25,688 nucleotides of DNA from a virus (Duplodnaviria > Heunggongvirae > Uroviricota > Caudoviricetes): IMG/VR virus record IMGVR_UViG_2627853701_000015. One strand, written 5' to 3'. This document shows, in pieces, positions 901 to 22,501 of the stretch. The notes beneath the pieces are model-generated. The model had not been told where the DNA came from and ran no database searches. It saw only the letters and a list, made by a program, of their open reading frames with translations. How positions within the stretch are numbered: position 1 is the stretch's first letter; every line of letters starts with the position of its first letter. The position numbers were made by a program, and so were the translations under genes.

Positions 901-1026
901 ATGTCTGCACCTGCATTGCCTGATGTCAGAACAGTATTTTGATTAATTGCCAGGGTTACAATGGCACAAATGCGGCACAGGAGGAAACGTGGTGTATTTA
1001 AATATGGGGTAACTACTTGATTTAAA

Positions 1027-1045
1027 TGGTGCGATAATAGGAACC
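1027..1045. repeat. degenerate direct copy of the tRNA-Thr 3' end; candidate distal att repeat of the P4-type element
   Basis: TGGTGCGATAATAGGAAC here versus TGGTGCCGATAATAGGAG at 13820-13837, same orientation, one indel and one mismatch by eye. Confidence 0.3.
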
Positions 1046-1575
1046 AATAATCGCCACCAACACAATGATTTTAATACATAAATTAAAATAGAAGATTTAA
1101 ACTACACACACCCCTATACACATTGGTGAAGGCGTTCGCTTTCCGCGCATTCTCAAGGCAGAAAAAACTTTTTTTGGGGGATAACTGTTCATACTACTCA
1201 TTGTGTTTTTTTTCATTAATATTCAAAAAGATATGAAATTAACGATTGATAAGAAGTGAACACTTTACTGTTCACCTTGACTGATTAATAAGTGCATAAA
1301 AACCTAATTTTTGAGCACGGAAGGTATTTGTTCCTTACCCCATTTTTTCTCTTTAGTCCAGTACAACAAAAAATGCGCCCAACAGAAAACTGTTTTGAAT
1401 TTAAATGCAATCGCTTTGTAGTGATTGTAACGTAAGTTGATTTGATGGGTGCGATTTTGTTTAGCGATAATGGTATGTTGTAAAAATCATTTCGTTGCAA
1501 TAAAATTGCATCGCTACATTTTATAGACAATATCAATTAAATTTTAATACTCATTATTAATTTTGAGGCTAACAA

Positions 1576-2532
1576 GTGACTAGTTATTCAAACTTTTCCA
1601 ATCAAATAAAAGAAACCATCAATAATAAATTCGATCATGAAATTCATGATTGGGACATTATAAAAAACTCAATCACAACTTTAATAAATAAAAATATCCA
1701 TGGTGCAGGTAGAAATATCGTTGATTTTATAGATTTAGGTAACTGGGATTTTATTTCAAACTTTTCCTTTGATGACTCTACAAGAAGACTTGAATTAGAG
1801 TGGCACCCCAATGATAAATTCCATATATATATTGAGTCCGTTGTGTTTGTCGAGTTTAATGACACTATATATGCTTTCTTAAAGGGATACTATCACAATC
1901 AGTTATCTCTAAATAGAATATATAATACAAAATGCTCTTCATGTTCATTTGAAAACTCAGGTTCTTATATGGTAGACGTTTATAGAACGGTTAAAAGAGT
2001 AAATGAGACAATCCAGACCCCAAATATAAATTGCTATACTACATGTATTTTAACAAGGCCCGCAAATGGTCATGTTACATCTACAGGCTTCTCACGAAAC
2101 CTCATGGATGCGATAAATATTTCATTAGCAGAGCACAAAATAGCCTCTTTACATAATGAAGTCATGAGTATTGAGGAATATGATCGTGATTCTTTACAAG
2201 AGAAAGGAAATACTGCCAGGAGATATTTAGAATATATTCTCATGCTTGTTAATATTCGTATAATGCATTTAAACAACGTTCAATACCAAGAGCAAATGCT
2301 AGGTAGTTTAGTTTCTGTTATTGAGGCTCTGGACTATGAACCATTAATGAAAAATGATGTTGAAATTACAAAGGACATCCTTAATGCTTGCAGCCACCAC
2401 GGGGGGGTTAGAATTGAAAAGAAAGATGTAATTTTTTCTTTGGAAGTTATTGAAAACTTAATTAAAGCCATAAAGAAAACCGACATAAATAAATTACAAC
2501 TCGATGGGATGTTTAAATCAATTCAAAAATAA
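1576..2532 (+). CDS. hypothetical protein, AT-rich accessory gene of unknown function
   Basis: 318-aa ORF with GTG start preceded by GAGG 7 nt upstream; ~30% GC against ~50% flanks; convergent with the alpha gene; no motif I can assign. Confidence 0.6.
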   Translation: MTSYSNFSNQIKETINNKFDHEIHDWDIIKNSITTLINKNIHGAGRNIVDFIDLGNWDFISNFSFDDSTRRLELEWHPNDKFHIYIESVVFVEFNDTIYAFLKGYYHNQLSLNRIYNTKCSSCSFENSGSYMVDVYRTVKRVNETIQTPNINCYTTCILTRPANGHVTSTGFSRNLMDAINISLAEHKIASLHNEVMSIEEYDRDSLQEKGNTARRYLEYILMLVNIRIMHLNNVQYQEQMLGSLVSVIEALDYEPLMKNDVEITKDILNACSHHGGVRIEKKDVIFSLEVIENLIKAIKKTDINKLQLDGMFKSIQK

Positions 2533-2635
2533 ACATCATCTAACAATGAATTAGATGCATTTTCCGCTGACGCCTTAGCATATAACTTTTAAATTTTATC
2601 GATATATATTTTGAGATAATTTCCTGTAGCGGATT

Positions 2636-2658
2636 TAAGACCGGCACAGCCGGTCTTA
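2636..2658. terminator. 10-bp-stem hairpin between convergent genes, possible bidirectional terminator
   Basis: TAAGACCGGC-ACA-GCCGGTCTTA perfect inverted repeat between the stop at 2532 and the alpha stop at 2665; no clear U-tract on either side. Confidence 0.35.
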
Positions 2659-2664
2659 GGTCAG

Positions 2665-4998
2665 TTATTTCGCTGCAAACTCATCGCATTTTGGCAACCA
2701 GTCAGCATTGCTTTCCTCTCTTAGGGCCAGATTAGTCTGCATTCCTTGATTGGTCCGTCGTTTCTCATACTGCAGCCCATATTCCTTGAGCATTAACGGT
2801 AGCCCCTTGCCAAACATGGTCAGACTGAGCGTATTTTTATAGCCGTTAGCCTCCATGTAGACCAGATAGGCATGGTAGAGGTAAGTTCGAGGCTGACGTG
2901 GAACAATATTAGCGTTCCCCATAAACATGCCCGTGGTGTCAGGTAGGACCTCAAGGTAGCCGCAAAAATCAAAAGCTGAATCAGCATCACGTTTGATGGT
3001 GAGCGCTTCATCGGAGTTCTGCTGTGACTGAAGCAATGTCCTGGCACTCATTGGGTCGCTGAAACGCTGCATAAGCTGGCGAACAATCACCGCTAGCTCA
3101 CTGGCAATTTTCTCTTTGAGCTGGGTATCGCGTTCCTCCGGGGCTATCTGGTCGGGGAAATGCAGGATCACCCTTCGGCGTGAAACTCCACCACTACGAT
3201 CAGTGAAGCGCATCGGATTATTGTTCACAGCCAGGATGACCGCCGGGATGTGGGTTGAATAGGCGTTCTGATATTTGGGATCAACGGATACCGCATCGCC
3301 GCCAGTGATGGCTTTTAGTCCGGCCCCGTCACCGCTCCACTTTTCCTGGTCGGGAAGTCGAATCAGTGAAAAACCTATTAACGCAGCTCGTTCTCTTGGC
3401 GACTCAAGCATTTCAATGGTTGCCGAGGTCGCGTTATCTTCACCCGCCAGCATGGTTGCTATTTCAGCAAGAATACTCTTTCCACTTCCGCCAGGGCCAG
3501 TGACCTCCAGAAACAGCTGCCAGTCATAACGGTTAGCCAGCACCATAAACAATGCAGCCAGAATAATGTCCCGTTTTTCAGGATTAAAACCTGCGGCACG
3601 ATCCAGCCAGCGCCAGAATGCCGGGGCATGGGTTTCCAGTGACTCACCGTCAACGGGCTGCGTGTAATCCACCTCGCACAGCGTACGTAACCAGTGCTTC
3701 TTATCGTGCGGGCTGAACAATCCTGTCCGGGTATCGAGCACACCGTTGCGAAATCCGATAAGTTGCCGCGCCGGATTCTGCTGTTGCGGAACGATCAGTT
3801 TGAGGGTTTCCACGAGAGACGCAATTTTCGCGGATGAAAAAGGTGCGTCGAGGCGCTGAAACAGCGCAGCGACATCACGGGCAAAATCGGCGTAATAGAT
3901 AACTTTCCAGGCCCCCGCCTCATAGCGTGAAAGGAGCTGCCCGTTCGGGTCTACTGCCAGTGAATTTTTATAGTGATCCACTACCCTCTGCGCTTTTTCG
4001 CTGACGCTCAGCGCGGTAAATTCAGCTTCGCTCATTGTGTCGAAGGGGCTGGCAACAGCTGGTTTTATTACTTCATGAATTGCATGCCGGGTGGCTTCTT
4101 CGCCGTTTTGCGTGAATGCATCGTTCCAGTCACCAAACACAGGCGGGAGCGCCATTGTGCAATTGCAGGCCCCGGTAACAGCTGCGCCCCTTGTTTGCCC
4201 CGCACCGTTGAGATCGCGGTCAGCAGCAATAATTATCTGGTGCGTTGGGTACTCACTGCAGGCAATGCTCGCCAGGGAAAGGAAATTGACGGACGAAAAG
4301 GCCACCATGACAGCATCGCCAGTCAGATAGTTGATAGTAAGTGCGGTGGCATATCCTTCCGCTATCCAGAGCCGTTTGGCTGCTTTGGCAGTACCTTCAA
4401 CCAGGTAAAAGGCATTCTTAACCTGACCGCCTTTAAGGAAGCATTTGCCCCCATTAGCGTTGATTAACTGCAGATTTACCAGCTCTCCATCTGCATACAA
4501 TGGAACGACAAGATCTCCCGCGCGAAATGCCACACCACCGACTTTATGCATAGCGGTTAATTCCCGGCAAGGCAGTGCAGGAAACCCTTTACTCGTCAGA
4601 TAGGCATTGCCAGTGGTCTGGCGGGACTTATCAAACAAACGGGCAGCCAGCACTGCTGCAGCTTTTCTCCCGTCCTCTTTTTCAGGAGAACCAGATTCAA
4701 GCATTCCCTGAGATACTGGCAGCAGGTTTCCGATAATGCCGTTTATTCTGTCTGCCGCTTCACTAATGCCTACATCCAGTACTTTACTTACAAGCGCCAG
4801 GCCATCACCTGCCCCGCACTGGTTACAGAACCACGTTCCCCGCCCTTCCTGGTCATCAAATCGAAAGCGGTCTTTCCCGGCACAGACCGGGCAGGGCTGG
4901 TGCCGATTTTTCAGTACATTTACGCCCAGCGCAGGTAAAATTCTTGACCAGTGACCCCGAGCTGCTTTCTCAGCCTGGCTAACTTTCATTCCTGACAT
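2665..4998 (-). CDS. P4 alpha-type DNA primase/helicase
   Basis: Zinc-binding 'CPVCAGKDRFRFDD...CNQCG' N-terminus, primase-sized central region, Walker A 'GPGGSGKS' helicase C-terminal half. Start placed at the internal ATG (MSGMKVSQ...) with AAGGAGG 8 nt upstream; the ORF track extends to 5055. Confidence 0.9.
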   Translation of the reverse strand: MSGMKVSQAEKAARGHWSRILPALGVNVLKNRHQPCPVCAGKDRFRFDDQEGRGTWFCNQCGAGDGLALVSKVLDVGISEAADRINGIIGNLLPVSQGMLESGSPEKEDGRKAAAVLAARLFDKSRQTTGNAYLTSKGFPALPCRELTAMHKVGGVAFRAGDLVVPLYADGELVNLQLINANGGKCFLKGGQVKNAFYLVEGTAKAAKRLWIAEGYATALTINYLTGDAVMVAFSSVNFLSLASIACSEYPTHQIIIAADRDLNGAGQTRGAAVTGACNCTMALPPVFGDWNDAFTQNGEEATRHAIHEVIKPAVASPFDTMSEAEFTALSVSEKAQRVVDHYKNSLAVDPNGQLLSRYEAGAWKVIYYADFARDVAALFQRLDAPFSSAKIASLVETLKLIVPQQQNPARQLIGFRNGVLDTRTGLFSPHDKKHWLRTLCEVDYTQPVDGESLETHAPAFWRWLDRAAGFNPEKRDIILAALFMVLANRYDWQLFLEVTGPGGSGKSILAEIATMLAGEDNATSATIEMLESPRERAALIGFSLIRLPDQEKWSGDGAGLKAITGGDAVSVDPKYQNAYSTHIPAVILAVNNNPMRFTDRSGGVSRRRVILHFPDQIAPEERDTQLKEKIASELAVIVRQLMQRFSDPMSARTLLQSQQNSDEALTIKRDADSAFDFCGYLEVLPDTTGMFMGNANIVPRQPRTYLYHAYLVYMEANGYKNTLSLTMFGKGLPLMLKEYGLQYEKRRTNQGMQTNLALREESNADWLPKCDEFAAK

Positions 4999-5011
4999 TG
5001 TGCGGCCCTCC

Positions 5012-5335
5012 TTAGTGCAGCGCTGGTTTGTTGAGGTGACGGGAACAAAGTTCATCCATGACCGTCATTCCGAGCAGTGAGAGAACCGGACAGGCTTTAA
5101 GCGGCCCCGACTCCATCAGATCCGAAAGCAACGCGCAGGCAATTTCCAGCCCTCTTTGCTGCCCATGCTGGCGCAGATAGAACCCTTCCAGCTCGCGGGC
5201 TATGGCATCTTCAAGTTCAGCGAGCGTCAGGCCGGAATAACGTTCCTGATGATTGCTTAGAGCCAGCCAGGCACAGGCAACGGCACGGCGATACAGAGCG
5301 GCACGAAGTGCCAGAAGAGATTCACAGCATATCAT
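5012..5335 (-). CDS. hypothetical protein in the alpA-alpha operon
   Basis: 107-aa ORF; its ATG overlaps the upstream ORF stop (ATGA at 5333-5337); same strand as alpA and alpha. Confidence 0.45.
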
Positions 5336-5556
5336 CAGGCCACCTCCGCATTCATCAGGTCGTCATGGCAGCGTTGCACCACTCCATCCAGTTGCTCTGT
5401 CATCAGATAAATGAGGGAAACCAGTTGTTCGCATTGGGCACCTGCTGGCTTTTCATAACAGTCCTGCAGGGCTGCCATGCCAGTTACATACTCACCCACA
5501 TTGCGTAAATGTTTCAGCCTTACAACATCGTCGTAGGAAATCTCAAACTGGTTCAT
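5335..5556 (-). CDS. hypothetical protein in the alpA-alpha operon
   Basis: 73-aa ORF with ATGA start/stop overlaps at both ends (5553-5556 and 5333-5337). Confidence 0.45.
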
Positions 5557-6110
5557 AGCGTCACCTCCCCGGCAGGCAGCCGTGCAGAAAGGGAGAGTAC
5601 ATAATCTCGGACTAGCAAACGGCGCGCGGAACGCTCATCGCAGGAGACAGTGCGAAGCATACAGATGCGGGGGTGAGTGTCAGCACGGCGGATTGCGGCA
5701 AACACAAAGACATATTGCGGGTGTGACGGGGTGAGGATTGTAGCCATGATGGCAGCCTCCAATAAGTAGCGGTTATTGCTACCACCGGAAACGCCAATTT
5801 CACTGGTGGCAGCCCGAACGGGGTTGGCGTAACCGGCCTTATTGGAAACCGGCCAGCCCGAAGGCTGCCCCGCCCGGACTACCATTATCTCGATAGAACC
5901 ATGGTGTAAGCATAAACACCACAGCCCTGAAAATGGTTGTGCCTGAGCTACGACGTAAAAAAAGACGCAAGGGGCGTCAATTGTCGCCAATAAGTTATAC
6001 GGAACGCCAATTCCGGCTGCCGATTTTGCGACAGCGGAAAAACTATACCTGGAAATGACGACAGTAAGCAAGCCAGAATAAAGGTATTTAATGTATGCAG
6101 GTATCATCAT
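5553..6110 (-). CDS. hypothetical protein, uncertain
   Basis: 185-aa ORF whose start overlaps the alpA stop (ATGA at 6107-6110) and whose stop overlaps the next start; odd composition, so it could be a shorter gene or partly non-coding. Confidence 0.35.
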
Positions 6111-6367
6111 GCATCACATCCCCGCCCACGGGCGCTGATGCGGTCCGCCATCCATGCGCTGACCTCAGACTGTGCCCAGGCGACATTTTTACCGCCAAGC
6201 GGGATCTGCTTCGGAAACGCATCGCGGCTGATCAGGTCGTAAACGGTCGAACGGGACAACCCGCATAAGTGCATCACCTCAGGCAGGCGTAAAAATCGCT
6301 CATGATGGTTCGATACAGGAAATAATGGCGCAGCAGGAGCTGGCGCAGACACAGAAATATTACGCAT
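6107..6367 (-). CDS. alpA: AlpA-family phage transcriptional regulator
   Basis: 86-aa protein with '[53 protein letters not shown]', the AlpA/prophage CP4-57 regulator helix-turn-helix pattern. Confidence 0.85.
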
Positions 6368-7212
6368 TTATCTACCCTCTTTAATTTCCACAACAGTCCG
6401 GATGAATTTATCCGGGTTCAGGTAGTTCCTTATTATGTGTATATAAACCACCTGCGCACGCATTTTTTATTTAGCGTCACATATTGATTTTATGGAATTT
6501 AAAGCCCGATTAAACCATATAAAATGACATAATAAATACCATGCCTGCGGACTATAAATACAGGAGCATTAATAGGAACTACCATTCACCCAGGGTTTAC
6601 TATCCTATGGGTCATTGCACCTGATAGTGCTAACCCCACCGCCAATACAGCAAGGCAGTACAACTTCTACACGAGGCCTTGCATTGCAGGCCCCAATTTC
6701 CGGGCATATTTTTGAATCGCATCCAACTTATAAACATTGGGCCTGCATAAAAACCTTGATATTAAATAACATCACCTTAAATCGTAAAATATATCCGAAT
6801 GAATCCATAAAGAACCGGACAGATCTAGTTTTATAAAAATCAGTATGAAATGCAACACCATGGCCAGAGGCGAAAATGTTATTCCCCGGCAAAAACATGC
6901 AGTCTATTTATGTGCCTGTTGAATACTCCTGAATAAGGGTGAATAGTGGTGAGGAGCAAAAAACAAATAGCTACGAGGAATAAAAAAACCACCCATTATG
7001 AAAAAATACCATAAATAATTTTATTCCCATGTGAACAGTTATGAACAGTCGATGAATACTGCCATGCCAACCCTTCACCTTATAACCTTCTGTATTACCT
7101 ATTTTTTTTACCTAAGTGAATAGTAGTGAATAGTTAAGGTAAGTCTGAAACAGCCTTAGTTAAACGAGGCCTTTTCTGGCTAGCCAAAAGAGGTCCGGGG
7201 CGGTTCAGTCTT

Positions 7213-7230
7213 TGTCTTGTCGCTCGCACA
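7213..7230 (+). promoter_or_regulatory. TGT-N12-ACA dyad, candidate Ogr/Delta activator site of the late promoter
   Basis: TGTcttgtcgctcgcACA lies ~70-90 nt upstream of the ATG at 7301; P2/P4 late promoters carry this dyad near -55. Confidence 0.5.
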
Positions 7231-7300
7231 ATGGCGTTCAATGGCAGCTTTGTATGCATCACAGCACAATTGACACCACGACAAACCACTAGGTGCTGAC

Positions 7301-8053
7301 ATGACAATCCCAGAACAGAACAATAACCCGATCGTTGAAATTTCTATCCCTGTTTCGACGCAACAGGCGCTTGAGAAAGTGAATGCCACCAAATCTGCAT
7401 GGCTTGAAGCACGTCGTCAGCAAAAAGCGGCAGCGGATAATATTGCGACAATCCGCCAGCGCCGCGCTGAAATGGAAGCCACGACGAACGCCCTGAATGA
7501 GGAGTGGCGCACGCTATTTCGTGAAAGTCAGGGCGTAGTCTCAAAGGAAATGAAAAAACTGCGCACGGAAATTGCGCTGGGACGAGAAACGCTTGAGGAT
7601 TTTGATGAGCTGCTGGCGGCTCAGGAAAGCGAAAATGCACTTTTGCCGCAGGAGGCTGCGGAATTAGCCGGAAAGTATATCCACGCGCACGACACCCTTG
7701 TGGGTATTCGCGCAAAACAAATCTGGGAAGATTTTATGCAGTCGCATGGAAAAGCACTAATCCAGACACTAAGCCTGCTCAAATCAACAATGGGCAGGGA
7801 AGCCAGCGCAGTTGTCGGTGTGGTGCATTCAGTTAATGACCCGGACACACTGCTGAAAGATTTTATTCATAAACATATCACCAGACCGGCTCTGACTAAC
7901 GATGCGATGCCCGAACAGGACCCCGTGTTTAAACTGGCGGGAGTTGCCCCGGATTATGCGGCCCGTCTGGATTTCAGTAATAAACTCTCTCCAGCAGCTA
8001 TGCATAAAATGAAGGTTCGTCAGGAACGTGCTGAGAAGGAGAAAGCAGTATGA
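7301..8053 (+). CDS. P4 Sid-like / Psu-family late protein
   Basis: 250-aa ORF with AGGTG 5 nt before the ATG; first gene of a coupled operon ahead of the psu-like and delta-like genes; size matches Sid; assignment by position and size only. Confidence 0.5.
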   Translation: MTIPEQNNNPIVEISIPVSTQQALEKVNATKSAWLEARRQQKAAADNIATIRQRRAEMEATTNALNEEWRTLFRESQGVVSKEMKKLRTEIALGRETLEDFDELLAAQESENALLPQEAAELAGKYIHAHDTLVGIRAKQIWEDFMQSHGKALIQTLSLLKSTMGREASAVVGVVHSVNDPDTLLKDFIHKHITRPALTNDAMPEQDPVFKLAGVAPDYAARLDFSNKLSPAAMHKMKVRQERAEKEKAV

Positions 8054-8601
8054 TGGCCCGAGTCACTCCAGACCAAGCGCTTATCAGTTTTAGAAATGCC
8101 CGTATTCTGTGGGCTGGACATAGTGAGAGCCGAAAAGCCGTTGAACAACAGATAGAATCACTCCTCACTGCCATGGAAAAACCAGCAGATTATGCTCGAC
8201 AGCTCGAATTACAGCGGGAACATCTGGATGTGCTGAAATGGCAAATTAACTGTGCTGCGCGCGAATGCATTTACTCGCAGCATCAACTGATGGAGGCCTG
8301 CACAGAAGACGCTCTCAGCAATTTTATGCAGGCGAATGGAGCAGCCCTGACATCTGCACTGGCTCCGTTCCTGAAGGGGCGCGGAGGGGTTGACGTTGCG
8401 TCCCGTATATTACGCAATGCTCTGGTTCGCCAGCTGGCAATAACACCGCCTGAAATTGCCGGGGATTATCGTATGATTCTGGATGAATCCGGTGTGATGC
8501 CTGACCCCATGATGGTTCGTGATTGCCAGAGCTCTTACACCCCTGCACAACAACTGCGCTTTCAGCAACGTCTGGATTACATTAACGGCATGCAGGAGTA
8601 A
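8050..8601 (+). CDS. psu: Psu-like polarity-suppression protein
   Basis: 183 aa; 'KWQINCAAR...FMQANGAALTSALAPFLKG...TPAQQLRF' resembles P4 Psu as I recall it; ATGA-coupled to the upstream gene. Confidence 0.6.
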   Translation: MMARVTPDQALISFRNARILWAGHSESRKAVEQQIESLLTAMEKPADYARQLELQREHLDVLKWQINCAARECIYSQHQLMEACTEDALSNFMQANGAALTSALAPFLKGRGGVDVASRILRNALVRQLAITPPEIAGDYRMILDESGVMPDPMMVRDCQSSYTPAQQLRFQQRLDYINGMQE

Positions 8602-8606
8602 TATTA

Positions 8607-8879
8607 ATGGCACTTAAATGTCCCGAATGCGGTACGACGGCACACGCCAGAACCTCCGCCTATGAAGCACCATCGGTTAAACGCTCATGGTATCAGTGCC
8701 AGAATCTTGAATGTTCCTACACATTTACCGCACTGGAAAGTGTGGATACGATAATCATGAAGCCCCGGCGCAATGAACAGGAATCAGAGAAAGCACAAAT
8801 GCCGGAAAAACAACAGCAAACTCTCAATCGCTATGGCTCCGCGTCAAAGCTGTCAAGCCGTCAGCAAATTCCTGTCTGA
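8607..8879 (+). CDS. Ogr/Delta-family zinc-finger late-gene activator
   Basis: 'CPECGTTAHARTSAYEAPSVKRSWYQCQNLECSYTF' is the C-x2-C...C-x4-C Ogr/Delta zinc-finger pattern; 90 aa, a single Ogr-like unit. Confidence 0.85.
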   Translation: MALKCPECGTTAHARTSAYEAPSVKRSWYQCQNLECSYTFTALESVDTIIMKPRRNEQESEKAQMPEKQQQTLNRYGSASKLSSRQQIPV

Positions 8880-8900
8880 TTAGCAAAAAAAGCCCACGTA

Positions 8901-8926
8901 ATCCCGGTCCAGTACTGGGATTTTTT
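8901..8926 (+). terminator. rho-independent terminator after the late operon
   Basis: Hairpin TCCCGG-loop-CTGGGA followed by TTTTTT, directly after the delta-like stop. Confidence 0.5.
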
Positions 8927-9232
8927 ACGCCTTTTCCCTGGCTGGCCTGAGAGCGCATGAGTGCATGTCTATAGCGCATGAAAACGCATGATTCTCATGC
9001 ACCATTTTTGACGCGAAAGCCCTTGTGTGGTGGCTTCTGAGACGATTTGCGGAATGCATGAAAACCAGTCTGTTAAGCGAAGCGAGCAGGCGTGGGGGGC
9101 TGCGCGCGCTAAGGGGTTAGATTATAAAATATCAAACGCCGGTGAGATCCATTATTGTGGAACCACCCGAAGGAAGTGTAGAGGCGAAAGTACCCAAAAT
9201 AATTTTGCAAATTATTTAGAAATGAACTGAGC

Positions 9233-9258
9233 GCTCGAAACGAAATATAATTTCGAGC
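9233..9258. repeat. inverted repeat at the 3' end of the hotspot operon
   Basis: GCTCGAAA-N10-TTTCGAGC between the hotspot operon end (9289) and the upstream module; no U-tract, so terminator function is uncertain. Confidence 0.3.
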
Positions 9259-9288
9259 ACCCCAATTAGCAGTTATATTTTTAATGTA

Positions 9289-9855
9289 TTAAACAGGATA
9301 AAAACCAGAGCTTCCATTCTTATTTAAGTTATGGATTTTATTTGCATCATTAATTTTTATTTGGAACGTCGGACCTTTATTCTCAAGAATTACAATCTGG
9401 AAATTATAGTCCCTTTTGATTAATGCGTGATAAAATGAATCACTGAGACTGACGCTATTAACATCCGATAGAGAACCCCCTCTATCTTTATCAAAGTGCG
9501 TCACTAATGGACTATCAAGCACAACAAATCCAATGAATGGATTCCCTTTTCTTGATAAAAATTCCGCAAAGCAAATGGTAAATATAGCATGCATTACTGC
9601 ACGGGTACCTTTACCAAACATTCCTCGGCGTTTCCCATTGATATTAAAGTCATATGTATCTTCGTCAAATCGCACTTTGTTATCTTTAGAATTTTCAAAA
9701 TTTATATCATTCAAAAAGTCTTGCATCGCTATTTCTATATCATACAAATCAGCTACTGTTAAGGAGTCAAAGTCCTCGGCGGAGTATTTAAGTTCGTCAA
9801 CATCATCTTCTTTATCTTGTAATGAAGATAGAATGCTATGTTTTGTGTGATCCAT
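9289..9855 (-). CDS. ABC/SMC-like ATPase, C-terminal head segment
   Basis: 188 aa; signature-like 'FGKGTRAV', Walker-B-like 'FIGFVVLDSP', D-loop-like 'THFD'; start ATG overlaps the upstream stop (TAATG at 9853-9857); ~28% GC. Confidence 0.55.
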   Translation of the reverse strand: MDHTKHSILSSLQDKEDDVDELKYSAEDFDSLTVADLYDIEIAMQDFLNDINFENSKDNKVRFDEDTYDFNINGKRRGMFGKGTRAVMHAIFTICFAEFLSRKGNPFIGFVVLDSPLVTHFDKDRGGSLSDVNSVSLSDSFYHALIKRDYNFQIVILENKGPTFQIKINDANKIHNLNKNGSSGFYPV

Positions 9856-10445
9856 TAAAAGATTGTCTTTATATTCATAAAGTGATTCAAGAGATGAATG
9901 TATTGTTTTATATTTTTATCTTCTAACGTCTTAAAATCACTTTTTTCTGATTGATAAATTTCATTAACATCATTTTTTCTTAACATAATTAATTCATGTT
10001 CGCGAACATTAGATCCGATTGATTCAATTAATCCTTTCAGCTGGCTTTTGATTTTCAATTTTTCTGCATTACACGACAAAAAACAATCATCATATGATAT
10101 TTCATTTTCTTTTTTTTGCGGTGTATTACAGAACTCACAATAAATATCTGCAAAATTATTTAAATAGAAATTCGCCTGTGATACAACATCTATTCTTTGT
10201 AGATCTATAAAGTATTGGTCTTTAAGAAGACTAAATCTTTCAATGAGTAATGATAAGTATTTTTCCCTGTCACTGATTGAATATAATTCATCACTTAACT
10301 CTTTTAATAATTGCTTCTTATCATCAAGTGCATCAACAATACCTTTCAATATATCTTTCGATGATTCAATATCTTGCTCTACTTTCTCAAGTTCTCTTGA
10401 AACAATGACTTGATCATATTCAGGATAAATTAATTGCGCTTTCAA
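9855..10445 (-). CDS. coiled-coil segment with Cys4 cluster; probably the central part of the same ATPase
   Basis: Charged heptad-like repeats; C-x2-C ... C-x3-C cluster (CEFC ... CFLSC) mid-segment; no in-frame ATG or RBS, and the frame continues upstream to a single TAA at 10476-10478 that ends the Walker A ORF. Confidence 0.45.
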   Translation of the reverse strand: MKAQLIYPEYDQVIVSRELEKVEQDIESSKDILKGIVDALDDKKQLLKELSDELYSISDREKYLSLLIERFSLLKDQYFIDLQRIDVVSQANFYLNNFADIYCEFCNTPQKKENEISYDDCFLSCNAEKLKIKSQLKGLIESIGSNVREHELIMLRKNDVNEIYQSEKSDFKTLEDKNIKQYIHLLNHFMNIKTIF

Positions 10446-10475
10446 TTCCTCATAAATATTTGCAATTTGATTTTT

Positions 10476-11108
10476 TTAAAAATATCTTGCTTTTTTATTT
10501 GGTTTTTCTGCTAAGGAGTTAGTATCATCTCTCTGAGTTAAAAGGAATTTAAATTCAGACTTTCTTTTTGTCTCCTCGCTAGGAATATCAGAAAGAATTA
10601 ACGACTTCTCAGTTAACACTCTTAATTCATCAATACAAAAAAATTCAAAAACATTATTAAGATTAAATTTATGAAGAGTATTACTTAAGTTTGTTCTTAC
10701 TTTAGCCTCTTTGAAATTCAACCTACCATAAAAGTATGATGAAAAACTCTTTTTAGACGAAGCACTTTTGGAAAAAACCATCAACAGATTAGCTTCACTA
10801 ACATTTTCAATACTCGAATCATATAATCTGTAATGGGCGCTATCCTGAAGAGACCTCTCAATTGTCATTACCCTACCTTGAAAATTAAATTCCAGATAGG
10901 CTAAATCATAACCTTGAGCATGATCGATATCTTTATTTTTTAGTTTTTCACTCCCTAATAAATATCGAATCAAATAATATATGTATGTTTTTCCAGAGTC
11001 AGAACCACCATATAAAATAGTCAATTTAGAACCAAATTCAATTATAGCATCTAATTTATTGAATCCGGTTACCTTTATTTTTCTGAACGTAAAAAAATTG
11101 TCATTCAT
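10476..11108 (-). CDS. ABC/SMC-like ATPase, N-terminal head segment (Walker A)
   Basis: 'FRKIKVTGFNKLDAIIEFGSKLTILYGGSDSGKTYIYYLIRYLLG' is the N-terminal strand plus P-loop pattern of RecF/SMC/Rad50-type ATPases; ATG at 11108 overlaps the upstream stop (ATGAATGA). Confidence 0.6.
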   Translation of the reverse strand: MNDNFFTFRKIKVTGFNKLDAIIEFGSKLTILYGGSDSGKTYIYYLIRYLLGSEKLKNKDIDHAQGYDLAYLEFNFQGRVMTIERSLQDSAHYRLYDSSIENVSEANLLMVFSKSASSKKSFSSYFYGRLNFKEAKVRTNLSNTLHKFNLNNVFEFFCIDELRVLTEKSLILSDIPSEETKRKSEFKFLLTQRDDTNSLAEKPNKKARYF

Positions 11109-11559
11109 AATTAAATTCCATATCATATTTGCCAATTTTATTTTTTATAATTGATTGCAACTGCTCATCAGGAATATCACTATATAACTTAACCACCAAA
11201 TTTATATTATGCTCCATCTGCGCAACATATTCATTATGTAGAGAATTTGTAAATGCATATGTTTTTTCAGAAGCTTTATATACAAAACCACGATGTGTAT
11301 AAATTTTTGAGGCTAGTTCATAGCCTTGCAACAAAGCCAATGATTCTAAAACAATCTCTCGTTTTAGGGCTAACTGAGCATCTCTACGGGGTATTGGAGG
11401 ATGAAGACTAATCTCTTCAGGTAAAAAATCCTTAAGATTTACTAAAATAAAATCAAAACAAATAAGCCGTTCAAGGCTTAATGAAGAAGGATAAATAGCG
11501 ACGAGCACTTTCGCCATTCGACATGCCACTTCTAAACTTGAATTATAAATTCTAACCAT
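11101..11559 (-). CDS. hypothetical small protein, middle gene of the hotspot operon
   Basis: 152 aa from the ATG at 11559, which overlaps the upstream stop (TAATG) and has GGTGAG just upstream; the ORF track extends it to a TTG at 11574. Confidence 0.5.
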   Translation of the reverse strand: MVRIYNSSLEVACRMAKVLVAIYPSSLSLERLICFDFILVNLKDFLPEEISLHPPIPRRDAQLALKREIVLESLALLQGYELASKIYTHRGFVYKASEKTYAFTNSLHNEYVAQMEHNINLVVKLYSDIPDEQLQSIIKNKIGKYDMEFNYE

Positions 11560-12176
11560 TATCTCACCGTCCAAATTACTTCACCATCATTAACCAAATG
11601 ATGGCATATTCCTTTTTTATCATTTGCTTCACATATTTTTGATAGTACTGAATGTGCAATTGGTGTCAGAACAGCCTGCTTCAAGACTGCATTACACCTA
11701 ATAAATGCATAATTATGGTCTTCATAAAAGACGGGTTCAATTGAAGATGAAATGTAACATTTCAATGCTTTGAATACATCATCTTTAAATACTTCGCGGA
11801 CAAAAACCTCAAGCGAAGATGCAAAATAAAAATCATTTCTACTATTATTAAAGTGTCGTCTGTATGGATCATCAAGCTCTAAGAAAGAACTATAAGTTTT
11901 ATTTCCATGCTCTGAATAGGCTTGAAGCAGTGCATTAACATATACAGACTCTTTTTTTGAATTGTATGTTGGAATTTCATTTGGAGGGATTCTCACGACA
12001 TACAGCTCGTTAAAGTACTTAAAATAAAGGTGTGTATTTGCAATATCATTTAAAATCAATGATAAGGGTAGAGAGTAAAAAATACTAAAATCAAAATCCT
12101 CAATATATTTTTTTATTTCATCATCTAATGGAATATCAATCTTTTTAGTTATTTTTTTGAAATTGCTGAATCCCAT
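11559..12176 (-). CDS. hypothetical protein; possibly the C-terminal part of the nuclease gene
   Basis: 205-aa ORF with no RBS, overlapping the upstream ORF by 28 nt across an A7 tract (12152-12158); a 1-nt change there would fuse the two frames into ~335 aa. Confidence 0.45.
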   Translation of the reverse strand: MGFSNFKKITKKIDIPLDDEIKKYIEDFDFSIFYSLPLSLILNDIANTHLYFKYFNELYVVRIPPNEIPTYNSKKESVYVNALLQAYSEHGNKTYSSFLELDDPYRRHFNNSRNDFYFASSLEVFVREVFKDDVFKALKCYISSSIEPVFYEDHNYAFIRCNAVLKQAVLTPIAHSVLSKICEANDKKGICHHLVNDGEVIWTVR

Positions 12177-12565
12177 GAATCAAGGACTGCTTTTTTAAGC
12201 TCGTTTTTATTTTTCAATAAATTAGAAAATGTAGTAGATAAATCATAGGGTGCCACAAAAAAGTACTTCTGAGGGATGGGATAATCACCATTCAGAGTAA
12301 AATAGATAAGTTTTCCAAACTCAACTACAACATCAGAGAACCCTAAACTTTTTTTGTACAGTTTGCATTGATAATTATCCCAAGAATAACCTTCTACGTT
12401 AGGATCCGATTTATATCCAACAACGTCTCTACCTTTATCTCCAGCTCCTCCCAAACGTTCGCTCCACGGGTAATCATCTGATTTACAGACAATAAGCCAA
12501 TCATGGACAAATACCTCCCATTGTTCATCATCCCATGTCAATATTTCCGAAAGTGGTTGAGACAC
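12149..12565 (-). CDS. Mrr-like PD-(D/E)xK restriction-endonuclease-fold domain protein
   Basis: 'WEVFVHDWL...GGAGDKGRDVVGY...YQCKLYKK' matches the Mrr catalytic-domain pattern (G-x-G-D-x-G-x-D then Q/E-x-K); GTG start with AAGGAG 7 nt upstream, 3 nt after the int stop. Confidence 0.55.
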   Translation of the reverse strand: MSQPLSEILTWDDEQWEVFVHDWLIVCKSDDYPWSERLGGAGDKGRDVVGYKSDPNVEGYSWDNYQCKLYKKSLGFSDVVVEFGKLIYFTLNGDYPIPQKYFFVAPYDLSTTFSNLLKNKNELKKAVLDSWDSAISKK

Positions 12566-12568
12566 AAA

Positions 12569-13657
12569 TTAACTCCTTTTTAGTCTTTCAAATATCAAAT
12601 TACTGTACCAGTCCATCATAGACTTCCTTCCACTAAAATATTGAGCATGGTTATAAGTCCCCCTAATAGAATTTTTATCTACATGAGCCAACTGGATTTC
12701 AATCCAAGCACTCTCAAAACCTTGCTCATGCAGGATTGTAGAAAGGGTATGACGAAAACCATGTCCAGTGACTTTTCCTCCATACCCAATACGCTTAATG
12801 GCTTGATTTATACTCGCTTCGCTCATTGGCCTATTCGGATCGTTCCGCCCTGGAAAAACATAACGATAGTTCCCTGTCATGATCTTGAGTTCATTGAGTA
12901 AATCTACCGCTTGAGATGATAAGGGCACAAGATGTGGCCTACGCATTTTCATCCTTTCAGCAGGAATTTCCCAAATAGCGTTATCCAGATCAAATTCTTG
13001 CCATAATGCCGCGCGTAATTCGATGGTTCTCACACCCGTAATCATCAGTAATTTCGTGGCTATCTGGACAAGCTTACTCCCGGAGTAACCCTCTAAGGCA
13101 CGTAGAAAATCAGGTATCTCATCAGCTTTTAGGAATGGGAAATGATTGGATTGGTGTACTTCGAGAGCGCTGGAGAGATCAGCCGCAGGATTGTACTCCG
13201 CCCTACCCGTTGCAATTGCGTAGCGAAACACCTCTCCCACAGGCCTTGTTCCGACATAAGGAAAAATGTCGTTCTTAAACGCTTCCATGATGTCTGATGC
13301 ATATCCCGCCGACCATTTAGCAGATTTAAGTTGATGCCACTCTCTGGCTATCTTTTCGAAGGCGTTCTCTGACTCTGTTTGCATAGCTAGCTTTTGCTCT
13401 TTTCGAACCTCACTAGGGTTCTTTCCTTCTGCCACAAGTTTTCGAGCTTCATCACGACGGGAACGAGCATCGGCAAGGGTGATCGTTGGGTAAACACCAA
13501 GCGAGATCATTTTGGGTTTGCCGGCATAGCGATAGCGGAACCGCCAACTCTTGCTTCCATTAGGTTCTATAAGTAATGACAACCCTAGCCCATCTCCAAA
13601 TGTATAGGCTTTAGCTTCAGGCTTAGCGCGGCGAATCTGCATATCGTTTAAAGGCAT
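12569..13657 (-). CDS. int: P4-type tyrosine integrase
   Basis: N-terminus 'AKPEAKAYTFGDGLGLSLLIEPNGSKSWRFRY', catalytic region 'GHGFRHTLST...AHVDKNSIRGTYNHAQY' (R..H-x-x-R...Y); directly downstream of a tRNA 3' end. Start set at the internal ATG (MPLND...); the ORF track extends to 13708. Confidence 0.9.
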   Translation of the reverse strand: MPLNDMQIRRAKPEAKAYTFGDGLGLSLLIEPNGSKSWRFRYRYAGKPKMISLGVYPTITLADARSRRDEARKLVAEGKNPSEVRKEQKLAMQTESENAFEKIAREWHQLKSAKWSAGYASDIMEAFKNDIFPYVGTRPVGEVFRYAIATGRAEYNPAADLSSALEVHQSNHFPFLKADEIPDFLRALEGYSGSKLVQIATKLLMITGVRTIELRAALWQEFDLDNAIWEIPAERMKMRRPHLVPLSSQAVDLLNELKIMTGNYRYVFPGRNDPNRPMSEASINQAIKRIGYGGKVTGHGFRHTLSTILHEQGFESAWIEIQLAHVDKNSIRGTYNHAQYFSGRKSMMDWYSNLIFERLKRS

Positions 13658-13709
13658 GTGTATAGGAATCCAGACCGAACAGGAACATATACACAATCCT
13701 ATACACATT

Positions 13710-13819
13710 CAGTACCGGATTCTACTGGATGGTTACGGACTACTATGGACTTAAAAGAATAAAAAATGTTATAAATCAGAGATTTTATGGACTAATACGG
13801 ACGTTTGAGGAAGTTGAGA
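13710..13819. repeat. att arm region with short direct repeats
   Basis: Repeated GGACTAC/TATGGACT/TACGGAC words between the int start and the tRNA core, as expected for integrase arm-type sites. Confidence 0.35.
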
Positions 13820-13865
13820 TGGTGCCGATAATAGGAGTCGAACCTACGACCTTCGCATTACGAAT
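13820..13865 (-). other. 3' 46 nt of a tRNA-Thr(CGU) gene: att core, not an intact tRNA
   Basis: Reverse complement TTCGTAATGCGAAGGTCGTAGGTTCGACTCCTATTATCGGCACCA has half the anticodon stem, CGU anticodon loop, T-arm GGTTCGACTCC, acceptor 3' strand and CCA; sequence 5' of it (>13865) is not tRNA. Confidence 0.7.
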
Positions 13866-14212
13866 TATAAGAATCCGCTTCTAATTCAAAGCATTACCCC
13901 ATCAACACTGCGCTCACACGTCCCACCACATCAAAACATGTAAAGCCTTGCAAGCCATTGCGAGGCCTTATGTGTCTCAGTTTTGTCCCACCTTGTATTA
14001 CGACTTGCATAGCCAATGAAGATAAACGTGACGACAAACGGCGCAGCAGTCTTCTTTTCTTTCACGACTTCTCCAGCATGCATACCTTTCTGCCATGACT
14101 GAAGTGAATGCCTGTTATGAGCAAGGATTGGCCCAGATGAATCGCCCTGGACTGTTGCGATCGTGAAGCCATAGACTGGGCCGCAAGCACGGGAGGTTAC
14201 GATAAAGCGACA

Positions 14213-14578
14213 GTGCAGGATGTCATGTTAGGAGCGATAGAAAAACGCTTTGGCGATAAAGTACCGGAACAGTCCATCCAGTGGCTGACAGATAACGGTT
14301 CAGCGTATAGAGCGCATGAAACACGGCAGTTCGCCAGAGAGTTGAATCTGGAGCCCTGCACAACGGCAATCAGCAGTCCTCAGAGTAATGGAATTGCAGA
14401 AAGGTTCGTGAAAACGATGAAGGAAGACTACATCGCGTTCATGCCGAAACCGAATGTAAGAACGGCATTGCATAATCTTGCAGTGGCGATCGAACATTAC
14501 AATGAAAACCATCCGCACAGTGCGTTGGGTTATCGCTCTCCGCGAGAATATCGACGTCAGCGGGTAACGTTAACTTAA
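14213..14578 (+). pseudogene. transposase/integrase-core C-terminal fragment (IS remnant)
   Basis: '[10 protein letters not shown]...[11 protein letters not shown]...[12 protein letters not shown]' is the C-terminal DDE-transposase pattern; upstream frames are broken, so only a ~120-aa remnant is readable. Confidence 0.55.
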
Positions 14579-14619
14579 GATACCCCCCCTGTCTGGAAAT
14601 AAGGGGGCAAGAACAATGA

Positions 14620-15363
14620 TCAGATTCCCTGGTGAGTAAGAATTTTACTTTCTGAACTCCTCTGAGAGTATTGACTTGGAGAAACACCAAAATAACGTCT
14701 AAATACATAAGTAAAGTATGAGACACTGGCATAACCACAGACCTTAGCTACTTTACTAATAGGATAACAACGAGTGCTGAGTAAATATTCAGCCATTTGC
14801 ATCCTCTCATCAAGTATGATCTTACTGAATGATACCCCCTCTTCTTTCAATTTCCTCTTTAGTAAACTTTCGCTGAGATATAATCTTGATGATATATCCT
14901 TAAGACGCCATGGTGCAGATAAATCCGTATGAATAATCGTTTTAACTTTAGCCCCTGTGCTTTTCAAACATCCAAACAGAAATACTCCAAATTGTTTTTC
15001 AGAAGAAAATGCAGAGAGACATGTAAAAGCAATAGACTCATCAAAAATTTCTATGTATTCAGCACAGTGATTAGCCCAACTAATTAATCCTTTAATTAAA
15101 CTGAAGTCAGCAAAGTTTATTTTTAAATAAGATGGATATTCCCTACAATCAGAAATATCCCTTAAGTTATTAGCTTTCAAATAGCGACTAATAAACTCAG
15201 CGCCAAAATCCGCCACTATCACTCTTTCAGGATATGTCAGGAAAAAATCTCTAGAGCTAGAGTCGACAAGTACAGATGAACCTCTCTCCAGAAACACACT
15301 CTCTTTTCCGAAATAAACATCAAAGGACTCCAAAATCAATATAACTGAACATGTAGTTGCCAT
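14620..15363 (-). CDS. AraC-family transcriptional regulator
   Basis: 247 aa with C-terminal AraC-type HTH 'ISKVAKVCGYASVSYFTYVFRRYFGVSPSQY'; AT-rich (~33% GC). Confidence 0.75.
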   Translation of the reverse strand: MATTCSVILILESFDVYFGKESVFLERGSSVLVDSSSRDFFLTYPERVIVADFGAEFISRYLKANNLRDISDCREYPSYLKINFADFSLIKGLISWANHCAEYIEIFDESIAFTCLSAFSSEKQFGVFLFGCLKSTGAKVKTIIHTDLSAPWRLKDISSRLYLSESLLKRKLKEEGVSFSKIILDERMQMAEYLLSTRCYPISKVAKVCGYASVSYFTYVFRRYFGVSPSQYSQRSSESKILTHQGI

Positions 15364-15945
15364 ATCATCCCCCCAATTTAACTGAAACCAGGATGAAGTA
15401 TATGTATATAAAGTTCACTTTGCCAAACTTCAGTATAAAAAACCACTAAAAATAGGGTGTGATAAAAAATACCGTAACAATAAAGCAAAGGATTATAAAT
15501 TCCGTTACAGTTACAAATGATACTCAAGAAACAATTCCTTAGGAAAAACTTATTTACAGCCAATAAGTAAGACACTTATATGATATCAAGTTTTCATAAA
15601 ACATAACTAGGCTAAATAGCTGCGCCTAATACCGCTACACTTTTGCCAGCCCATGTTTGCCTCCGGGTATTGACCCCTTCTCTACGCAACTTCAGTTCCC
15701 ACCACCAACTTTGCGGCAGCTTTGTAGGATCAATGTCTAAAAGAATAATGGTGACCGATAAGAAAACGACTGAATAACTGCAGATTTTCGCTCAAAACCT
15801 TCCTGTCAGATCCATAGCGAATCAAGTGCTGAATGTCACAGTATCGAACAGAAAACAGTGACGATCTAACCCTTCAAGAATATTCTACGATTGTTCTGTT
15901 TAGGAAAAGCAAGACGGGAAGTCGGGAGATAAGTCATTGATAAAG

Positions 15946-16007
15946 TGGCGGAGAGAGGGGGATTTGAACCCCCGGTAGAGTTGCCCCTACTCCGGTTTTC
16001 GAGACCG
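15946..16007 (-). other. 3' 62 nt of a tRNA-Ser gene: att-type remnant, not an intact tRNA
   Basis: Reverse complement CGGTCTCGAAAACCGGAGTAGGGGCAACTCTACCGGGGGTTCAAATCCCCCTCTCTCCGCCA matches the anticodon-to-CCA part of an E. coli tRNA-Ser as I recall it; the 5' part is absent. Confidence 0.65.
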
Positions 16008-16090
16008 ACCCGATCATCAAACGAAACATAAAATTAGCTCACATTATGAGGAAAGGTATCTTTTTGCGCTATGTAAATTCAAAGGGTTAG

Positions 16091-16960
<870 letters not shown>

Positions 16961-17017
16961 ATCTTCAAGTGGTAAGCATAAACCGCAGCACGATCTTGCA
17001 TACGACGTGCTACGGTT

Positions 17018-17572
17018 TCATTTATCTCCGGCCGGAAACTTCTTATACAGTGTCGATACACCAACATCATAGATGATCGCTACCTTCTGGCGAGGAATTC
17101 CTGCTGCAATTAATCGTCCGGCCTGCGCCCATTGTTCTGGTGTAAGTTTGGGACGACGTCCACCAATTCGTCCCTGTGCGCGAGCAGCTTCCAGTCCAGC
17201 TTTTGTTCGTTCAACAATCAGTTCTCGTTCCATTTCAGCCAGGGCCCCCATCACATGAAAGAAAAAGCGCCCCATTGGGGTACTGGTATCAATAGCATCC
17301 GTCAGGCTGCGAAAATTAACGCCACGTTCGCGCAACTCCTCAACCAGAATGACCAGATGCCGCATACTGCGCCCCAGCCGATCCAGTTTCCAGACAACCA
17401 GAGTGTCACCTGCCGATAATGTCCTGAGCAGTTTTTTCAGTCCCGGCCTTTCGGACTTTGTACCGCTTATCTTGTCTTCAAAAATCAGCTCGCATCCTGC
17501 ACAGTTCAGCGCATTACGTTGTAGATCTGTGTTCTGGTCATTTGTTGACACACGTACATAGCCAATAAGCAT
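17018..17572 (-). CDS. pin: Pin/Hin/Gin-family serine DNA invertase
   Basis: 'MLIGYVRVSTNDQNTDLQRNAL...VVWKLDRLGRSM...GRFFFHVMGALAEMERELI' is the serine-recombinase catalytic domain with C-terminal HTH; AGGGAG 8 nt before the ATG at 17572. Confidence 0.9.
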   Translation of the reverse strand: MLIGYVRVSTNDQNTDLQRNALNCAGCELIFEDKISGTKSERPGLKKLLRTLSAGDTLVVWKLDRLGRSMRHLVILVEELRERGVNFRSLTDAIDTSTPMGRFFFHVMGALAEMERELIVERTKAGLEAARAQGRIGGRRPKLTPEQWAQAGRLIAAGIPRQKVAIIYDVGVSTLYKKFPAGDK

Positions 17573-17626
17573 GGTAGATCTCCCTGACAAAAGCAGGAAT
17601 GATGCCATTTGCTCGTTATTTCTGCA

Positions 17627-17652
17627 TTTTCATAAACGTTGGTTTGGGAGAA
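17627..17652. repeat. invertase crossover site, left
   Basis: TTTTCATAAACGTTGGTTTGGGAGAA is the inverted partner of the site at 19485-19510. Confidence 0.65.
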
Positions 17653-18012
17653 GCGGCAAAACGGGATGTGGGGACAGGGGAAAATCAGATACCGGACATG
17701 GCCTCTTTTGCCAGTGGTAATGGTTGGATGAAATTACCCAACGGGAAAATCCTGCAATATGGTCGTGGTGCGGTTACGCCGACATTATCGACGCAAACAA
17801 TGAGAATTACATTCAGCATCCCTTTCCCCAAAAAAGCGGACTGCGCCATGCTTACTCATTCTGGTGATGGCGGTGCGCCTTTAGGCGCTGGGCGAGGGTT
17901 CGTGATGACTGCAGAAGGCCCAACGTTAACCGGCTTTAATTCTGCTTACAGAACGTCATCAACCAGCGACACGGTATCGATGAATTACAGTTGGTGGGCT
18001 GTTGGTGAGTAA
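17653..18012 (+). other. silent alternative tail-fibre C-terminal cassette
   Basis: Reading frame inside the invertible segment, opposite orientation to the expressed fibre gene, followed by its own assembly gene; would be fused to the constant part after inversion. Confidence 0.5.
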
Positions 18013-18023
18013 TTTTATTCAGG

Positions 18024-18476
18024 GTGATTTATATGGACGAATATGTTTATAGCGCAAGGCATAATGCTTTTTTCCCTGTGGATATGATTGATAAATATAA
18101 ATCAGAGGGATGGGATTTATCAGACGCTAAGGAAGTAAATCAAAATATTATCAGTGAGTTTATGGCTGAACCGCCACAAGGAAAAATCCGTATTGCCGGA
18201 GATGATGGGCTGCCTGCGTGGGCAGATATTCCTCCACCCACGCATGAAGAGCTTATTGAAATTACTGAATCAGAAAGACAGCTACTAATTAACCAGGCCA
18301 ACGAATACATGAACAGTAAGCAATGGCCCGGTAAAGCCGCTATTGGTCGTCTGAAAGGTGAGGAACTGGCGCAATATAATTTGTGGCTGGATTATCTGGA
18401 CGCACTGGAACTGGTCGATACTTCCGGTGCGCCAGATATTGAATGGCCTACGCCTCCGGCAGTTCAGGCCAGATGA
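18024..18476 (+). CDS. tail fibre assembly protein (alternative cassette)
   Basis: 150 aa; C-terminal 'APDIEWPTPP' is shared with the opposite-strand paralogue; sits directly after the silent fibre cassette. Confidence 0.65.
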   Translation: MIYMDEYVYSARHNAFFPVDMIDKYKSEGWDLSDAKEVNQNIISEFMAEPPQGKIRIAGDDGLPAWADIPPPTHEELIEITESERQLLINQANEYMNSKQWPGKAAIGRLKGEELAQYNLWLDYLDALELVDTSGAPDIEWPTPPAVQAR

Positions 18477-21042: not shown

Positions 21043-21074
21043 AATGACTCCTGTTGATAGATCCAGTAATGACC

Positions 21075-21368: not shown

Positions 21369-21486
21369 ATGTAAGTATTTCCTTAGATAACAATTGATTG
21401 AATGTATGCAAATAAATGCATACACCATAGGTGTGGTTTAATTGGATGCCCTTTTTCAGGGCTGGAATGTGTAAGAGCGGGGTTAT

Positions 21487-21696
<210 letters not shown>

Positions 21697-21713
21697 TTAG
21701 TACATGCAACCAT

Positions 21714-21777: not shown

Positions 21778-21784
21778 GATTTAA

Positions 21785-22501
<717 letters not shown>

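Follow-up and report, generated by a model that had tools for sequence, protein, structure and literature searches.

The AT-rich reading frame at positions 1576-2532 of the window (the whole stretch of 25,688 nucleotides that was analysed) is a genuine gene under purifying selection and not a chance ORF. It lies in a foreign cargo module of a P4-like satellite integrated at the tRNA gene thrW, and its 318-aa product is predicted to carry a C-terminal HEPN fold. An earlier guess, made from the DNA alone, that the gene might encode an exclusion or abortive-infection protein therefore gains a structural basis together with contextual support, and the gene can be treated as a candidate for such a function. 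The reading that we favour, with somewhat less than even confidence, is that of a single-gene abortive-infection protein in which a sensor is joined to a HEPN domain, resembling Csm6 or RnlA in logic but belonging to neither family.

The frame is open from a GTG at 1576 through the stop codon at 2532 and is preceded by a GAGG ribosome-binding site at 1565-1568, 7 nt before the GTG. In the Citrobacter homologue an ATG is aligned with this GTG, and both the start codon and the ribosome-binding site are conserved. The GC content of the ORF is 31.3% compared with 52.3% for the alpha gene of the same satellite, and the first description of the ORF as 318 aa long, about 30% GC and provided with a good ribosome-binding site and a GTG start was accurate. 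RefSeq lists the CDS as WP_000205213.1, a hypothetical protein. We regard the ORF as a real gene because 36 close homologues of the protein were found in the database, because an exhaustive profile search recovered 108 representative clusters at 50% identity, and because Nei-Gojobori dN/dS values of 0.06 and 0.13 were obtained with the Citrobacter and Providencia copies, respectively.

The features of the satellite that are needed to place the gene are as follows.

1027-1042: distal att copy, a degenerate thrW 3' end, TGGTGC-GATAATAGGA, with one base missing (compared with thrW)
1103-1124: putative integrase arm-type repeats CTACACACACC / CCTATACACATT, direct-repeat family D6
1161-1277: crr-like cis replication region of the satellite backbone, one degenerate unit with TGTTCAC(C) iterons
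1280-2631, plus strand: AT-rich cargo module (31% GC), consisting of a 5' region of ~295 bp, the ORF and a 3' region of ~100 bp
1576-2532, plus strand: the 318-aa gene (open frame, homologues, predicted structure, dN/dS)
2632-2662: GC-rich hairpin with a 14-bp stem, a homologue of P4 t-alpha (terminator scan and sequence similarity)
2665-4998, minus strand: P4 alpha-type primase-helicase, 777 aa (Pfam domains, RefSeq CDS)
12568-13749, minus strand: integrase CDS (RefSeq)
13820-13865: int-proximal att copy, an exact 46-nt thrW 3' end, at the other end of the satellite beside int

Many E. coli O157:H7 chromosomes contain positions 900-2700 of the window at 100% identity, and in strain JEONG-1266 the entire window maps beside the tRNA-Thr gene thrW and proA. 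The 16-nt distal att copy forms the border with the chromosomal flank on the LysR side, and related thrW satellites have conserved it. The window matches E. coli genomes that lack the island over 900-1042, a match that covers an annotated tRNA-Thr, and the homology stops at about 1042; in these genomes the LysR gene abuts tRNA-Thr. Because thrW copies are present at both ends and the homology to island-free genomes ends at about 1042, the satellite is placed at approximately 1043-13865 (~12.8 kb), with the ORF inside it. A second copy of the CTATACACA-type arm repeats was observed at 13688-13709, where it overlaps the start of int. The repeats at 1103-1124 are kept in the TOE3 and LR-21-1 satellites, and P4 has annotated attP arm repeats at the equivalent place. 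Both sets, at 1103-1124 and 13688-13709, are probably arm-type sites of the integrase.

The hallmarks of a P4-like satellite were all found in the element, namely an integrase, an alpha gene, a CI/C4 RNA, sid-psu-delta, crr iterons and flanking att copies. RefSeq annotates int, alpha, an Icd-like protein, an AlpA-type HTH protein, a sid-like protein, psu and delta, and the alpha protein contains the Pfam domains Zn_Ribbon_Prim, Toprim_3, D5_N, DUF5906 and Pox_D5. The P4 CI/C4 immunity antisense RNA was identified by Rfam at 5802-5889 on the minus strand (84 bits), and a match to the Hfq-binding RNA isrK (Rfam, 72 bits) adjoins it in the immunity region at 5958-6035 on the same strand. The crr iterons are located at 1256-1262 (minus strand) and 1269-1275 (plus strand), and the crr-like region can be aligned both with the P4 crr unit and with att-crr of relatives that have no cargo.

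Other cargo and neighbouring elements were also noted. The main psu-int hotspot of the satellite, at 9289-12565 on the minus strand, holds five AT-rich genes (~30% GC); their products in RefSeq are an AAA ATPase, 'ABC-three component system' members and hypothetical proteins. For the O157:H7 strain FRIK944, Rousset et al. (2022) synthesised a psu-int system, which may differ from the locus in the window, and found it inactive on their phage panel (PMC9122126). Past the satellite, positions 13866-25688 form a mosaic in which a decayed lambdoid prophage (cI/cro/cII/replication genes) and IS3/IS1203 remnants are accompanied by a regulator of the AraC family, a GIY-YIG protein resembling LEM-3, and the pinE invertase together with fragments of tail-fibre genes. 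The mosaic runs past the end of the window in the reference record, reaching a truncated integrase and then the intact thrW; several elements thus stand in tandem at a single tRNA gene. A match of '84% identity' in the record IMGVR_UViG_2923272612_000005 was considered as a diverged copy of the satellite and rejected, the record being a copy of the same O157 element whose assembly is riddled with frameshifts. Window positions 5128-9044 are deleted in that record, which joins the start region of alpha to the hotspot, and its many ORF frameshifts are most likely assembly errors.

The borders of the cargo module were located by comparison with the relatives and with P4. Over positions 1000-1280 the window has a mean identity of 76% to the att/arm-repeat/crr region of two related thrW satellites; this backbone homology stops just after CTGTTCACC (1268-1276), at about 1280, and restarts at the alpha-terminator hairpin at 2632-2662. 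In P4 only 45 bp, made up of the alpha terminator alone, separate crr from alpha. Since the homology of the relatives and of P4 brackets the intervening DNA, and since P4 has just 45 bp there, a foreign module of ~1.35 kb sits between the crr repeats and the alpha terminator, and its insertion point between crr and t-alpha could be mapped exactly. The hairpin resembles the annotated P4 talpha (agaccggc...gccggtc), lies in the 132 bp between the ORF stop and the alpha stop, and probably terminates both convergent genes. The earlier placement of the ORF, convergent with alpha and between the alpha terminus and the distal att copy, was thus correct, and so was the view that it is AT-rich cargo of a P4-like satellite, carried at the alpha/att end.

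The 5' region of the module was searched for regulatory elements. The sequence-only reading had pointed to paired upstream words, and these are indeed present (TGCAATCGCT at 1406-1415 and TTGCATCGCT at 1506-1515, which differ by an indel), but their regulatory role was not upheld. A degenerate pattern covering TGCAATCGCT gave one match, a number that was reached in 26 of 100 shuffles, and neither word is conserved 5' of the homologues; the words were accordingly rejected as operators. Promoter-like matches 5' of the ORF were no commoner than in shuffled sequences, and the upstream DNA is not conserved at the homologue loci. An RNA antitoxin or riboswitch 5' of the ORF was rejected, as neither tandem repeats (TRF) nor an Rfam match at E<=1 was detected in 900-2700. 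The search for a small-ORF partner in 1000-1600 gave, among ORFs of at least 25 aa, only short, unconserved and mostly antisense frames. We also noticed that a stretch of 19 nt in this region, TTGATTTGATGGGTGCGAT (1437-1455), shares 84% identity with TTGATTTAAATGGTGCGAT (1017-1035), which comprises chromosomal flank and att copy. This likeness could be a trace of capture from a different element that integrates at thrW, or could be due to chance; a 45%-identical homologue, which bears on the former possibility, is located directly beside the integrase of a different thrW island.

The content of the slot between crr and alpha was observed to vary when five relatives and P4 were compared. Besides the 318-aa gene, several kinds of content were seen. 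Among satellites whose alpha genes are 76-92% identical, the slot is empty in TOE3 and IGC_RcoliRes_1.1, as it is in P4, and contains two unknown ORFs in 64EVA. In E. coli LR-21-1 it is occupied (L015:2789-3886) by a 365-aa protein that has no Pfam hit and matches the PADLOC SIR2 models with an E-value of 4e-9; judged by this match, it is a second defence candidate from the same slot. The expectation that the position would be variable rather than universally conserved was borne out by this comparison. One part of the original argument was wrong, however, as P4 was said to carry its accessory exclusion genes at this position, whereas P4 gop/beta/cII are located between cos and int and correspond to the main psu-int hotspot described by Rousset et al. 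(2022, PMC9122126). The slot in question matches instead the minor 'primase-att' defence hotspot of P4-like satellites (NAR 2026, PMC13586616) and as such is already known to hold cargo.

Homologues of the gene were found in the following contexts.

Citrobacter, on an ICE: flanked by ArdC and an orphan methyltransferase, with a type I RM system and AAA_15 at a distance of 3 kb
E. coli, in a thrW island: immediately past the integrase, in convergent orientation to a PDC-M60 A/B/C candidate defence system
Providencia: at the edge of a P4-like remnant, after ogr/delta
Pantoea: in a lambdoid prophage
Pectobacterium: in a mobilizable element, after the relaxase
Salmonella, on a plasmid: beside RelA_SpoT and AAA_13 genes
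Metagenome: adjacent to an RM system of the MmeI type
Proteus, Serratia, Enterobacter and Aeromonas: in small chromosomal islets

The homologues are always solitary and no neighbour is common to the approximately 12 contexts, while several of them have long non-coding 5' regions. Defence genes occur nearby in about 4 of the 12 contexts, an anecdotal count that carries no statistics. In the Salmonella case (noted at L039/L040:9220-10566 and 16137-16942) a Rep3 plasmid carries the homologue, P0027, with a group II intron on one side and a RelA_SpoT protein of 448 aa on the other, and ParDE, TacAT and a large AAA_13 protein are found nearby in a cluster of toxin and defence-like genes. The gene was absent from 50,697 phage genomes, had a single fragmentary match in the plasmid collection, and was found by close-alignment search at one locus among 185,579 species-representative genomes, which marks it as a rare accessory gene. 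In the host lineage, by comparison, the ORF region (at least 80% coverage) is present in 306 complete genomes and alpha (at least 99% identity) likewise in 306, and the exact 318-aa sequence occurs on at least 1000 contigs, with the frame intact in the records examined. The gene therefore has the profile of a mobile, sporadic and self-sufficient accessory gene, which is compatible with defence. Its acquisition as horizontal cargo by the thrW-integrated P4-like satellite is the best explanation of its present location.

Sequence searches with the protein were uninformative. No match at family threshold was obtained from Pfam, NCBIfam, PHROGs or PADLOC with the 318-aa query; the lowest Pfam E-value, 0.026, belonged to an unrelated domain, and PADLOC v2 returned 0 matches. 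For 85 family members Pfam gave nothing meaningful and PADLOC gave a single weak match to the unrelated JetB (E 0.0025). A sequence-profile search of the PDB returned noise only, and Foldseek against the PDB found no match at E<=0.001. Longer members of the family have N-terminal extensions of ~170-200 aa that offered no informative fused domain, four of them carrying DUF3775. The absence of homology to housekeeping or satellite replication functions, which had been named as a point to be checked, therefore held in the Pfam, NCBIfam, PHROG and PADLOC searches. The statement that no domain could be assigned holds for these sequence searches but is superseded at the level of structure, where the predicted model gives two domains.

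The AlphaFold2 model was built with 33 homologues and has a pLDDT of 87.8 and a pTM of 0.84. In this model residues 1-160 form an alpha/beta YojF/PH-like domain, and residues 170-318 form a helical HEPN-fold domain, a four-helix up-and-down arrangement that contains R215-x3-E219 and N270-x3-H274. The HEPN-MNT toxins 7ae2, 5yep and 8xdj are among the closest structural matches. Across 85 diverse members, for which the mean column identity is 13%, the only invariant residues are R215, E219 and H274, while N212, N270, S273 and G277 are conserved in at least 90%. The family consensus is (G/A)N-T-x-R-R-x-x-E-x-x-L-K ... N-E-x-S-H-D-S-G.

HEPN domains are characterised by an Rx4-6H motif with a polar residue after the R, and a second acidic residue often occurs in an Ex3[KR] motif (PMC3710099). 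The acidic motif was found, since E219 is invariant and the consensus reads RRxxExxLK, although the K has changed to M in the O157 subfamily. N270 and H274 (N-x3-H) match the second half of R[NDH]x3H, but the Rx4-6H arginine itself was missing, as the position preceding N270 is occupied by L, A, S or T and never by a conserved R in 110 aligned members. Some HEPN families are known to keep the H without the R, with the basic residue supplied from elsewhere (PMC3710099). Because the fold, the Ex3K motif and N-x3-H fit while the canonical arginine is missing, the protein is placed in the HEPN superfamily by its predicted fold, with a non-canonical active site. Pfam, NCBIfam and PADLOC hold no model of the family and a full-text search for the accession returned no paper; the protein family, its combination of domains and its active-site variant all appear to be undescribed.

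On the sensor-plus-HEPN reading, the cargo module would supply a soluble, self-contained protein of two domains. The N-terminal YojF/PH-like beta-sandwich would most likely bind a ligand or a phage protein, and the C-terminal HEPN domain would most likely be a metal-independent endoribonuclease. The protein would be inactive in the uninfected cell. A cue of infection sensed through the N-domain would then activate the HEPN domain, which would probably work as a dimer, and the activated domain would cleave host and/or phage RNA so that phage production stops. More tentatively, the homologues may together represent a new family of single-protein anti-phage systems, in which a YojF/PH-like sensor controls a non-canonical HEPN RNase (R-x3-E-x3-K, N-x3-H) and the gene is spread on its own, as a cassette, by satellites, ICEs, prophages and plasmids in the Enterobacterales and beyond.

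Three other explanations each have some support and were weighted below the sensor-plus-HEPN reading. It is unlikely, in our view, that the HEPN domain is non-catalytic and that the protein has a binding or regulatory role or acts as an anti-defence factor that helps the element to establish itself in new hosts. The Citrobacter neighbourhood, with ArdC and the orphan methyltransferase, would also fit the anti-defence role, but R, E and H, which are typical of HEPN active sites, are the sole invariant positions in such a divergent family, and this argues for a catalytic or tightly constrained site. The loss of the canonical arginine also has parallels in the HEPN families that take a basic residue from elsewhere, and a SIR2-like defence candidate in the same slot of a relative speaks against a role outside defence. 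An addiction-type toxin, which would stabilise the satellite and the other mobile elements and would be neutralised by an RNA or peptide from the ~295-bp upstream region or by its own N-domain, is less probable still. The resemblance to HEPN-MNT toxins, the many kinds of mobile element on which the gene travels and the long non-coding 5' regions of several homologues are in keeping with such a toxin; however, no neighbouring ORF is conserved in the approximately 12 contexts, these contexts contain no MNT or RnlB-like partner, and the repeat-free upstream DNA has no Rfam match and is not conserved among the homologue loci.

AT-rich DNA is often silenced in E. coli. The gene, which is of this type, could be a silent hitch-hiking passenger that has no current function in O157:H7 and is kept because the satellite is fixed in the lineage, although we find this the most doubtful of the explanations. 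The host lineage carries the gene in essentially clonal form, with equal counts of the ORF region and of alpha, and promoter-like matches upstream do not exceed those of shuffles, as a silent passenger would allow. Against it stand the strong purifying selection across genera, the intact frame in the records examined and on so many contigs, and the conservation of the start codon and the ribosome-binding site.

The slot itself, and HEPN effectors as satellite cargo in general, are already known. If the protein is active, the anti-phage repertoire would be widened by a new HEPN system encoded in one gene, whose active site is unusual and whose sensor domain is new, and the little-studied second cargo slot of P4-like satellites would gain an example resolved to the base pair, from crr to t-alpha. 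Furthermore, the gene and the satellite co-occur in 306 complete genomes of the O157:H7/O55:H7 type, and the gene could therefore influence the susceptibility of this pathogen lineage to phages, including therapeutic or biocontrol phages and Stx phages. If the protein is inactive or has no part in defence, the locus would be one more hypothetical gene in a known hotspot.

Several known systems resemble the protein in part. The Csm6/Csx1 proteins (CARF-HEPN) have a CARF domain in place of the YojF/PH-like N-domain, and the present protein is not found in a CRISPR or cyclic-oligonucleotide context and does not have the Rx4-6H arginine. Compared with HepT/MntA and the HEPN-T proteins (1wwp, 2hsb, 7ae2, 5yep, 8xdj), it has an extra N-domain of 160 residues, a different motif and no detectable sequence similarity, and an adjacent MNT gene was found neither in window positions 1000-2700 nor in the approximately 12 homologue contexts. 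A tandem-repeat RNA antitoxin of the type III (ToxIN-like) systems was likewise not detected in 900-2700 by TRF or Rfam. The K-12 protein YfjH (CP4-57, L019:1136-2092) was examined and found to be unrelated (hhalign probability 0.2). It is also exactly 318 aa long and is encoded beside the P4-type integrase IntA, and the equal length is a coincidence.

The resemblance to RnlA/LsoA extends to size (357 vs 318 aa), to the order of N-terminal alpha/beta domain(s) and C-terminal HEPN domain, and to carriage on mobile elements; RnlA/LsoA have an anti-T4 role. The catalytic residues of RnlA, which we take to be R255, E258, R318 and H323, form a pattern like that of R215-x3-E219 ... N270-x3-H274, and RnlA entries, including the R255A and R318A mutants, recurred among the Foldseek matches. 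These matches were insignificant (E 0.05-0.3, TM 0.13), the family profile aligned to K-12 RnlA with an hhalign probability of only 0.15, and no rnlB/lsoB-like gene was found downstream or as a conserved partner of the homologues; the RnlA matches were rejected as evidence, and the protein falls outside this family.

The lactococcal proteins AbiD, AbiD1 and AbiF (Abi_2), which are classed as HEPN (PMC3710099), offer a functional analogy. Like the present gene they are single-gene, AT-rich and borne on mobile elements, and encode proteins of ~300-350 aa with a HEPN domain. Their motifs and N-terminal domain are different, and Pfam Abi_2 gave no match to the 318-aa protein even at E<=1, so that the latter falls outside this curated Abi family. 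In the HEPN variants of the Parep1/8 type described by Anantharaman et al. (2013), the H is likewise kept while the canonical R is lost and other basic residues may substitute (PMC3710099). These variants are archaeal and are fused to or associated with other partners, and the likeness is confined to the motif.

At the level of the whole element, the O157 satellite agrees with the described P4-like hotspots in all core satellite parts and in having swapped AT-rich cargo between primase and att, whereas P4 itself is empty at this slot. The work cited above treats the slot statistically and the 318-aa protein matches none of the systems that it names, while the present comparison places the insertion point exactly, between crr and t-alpha.
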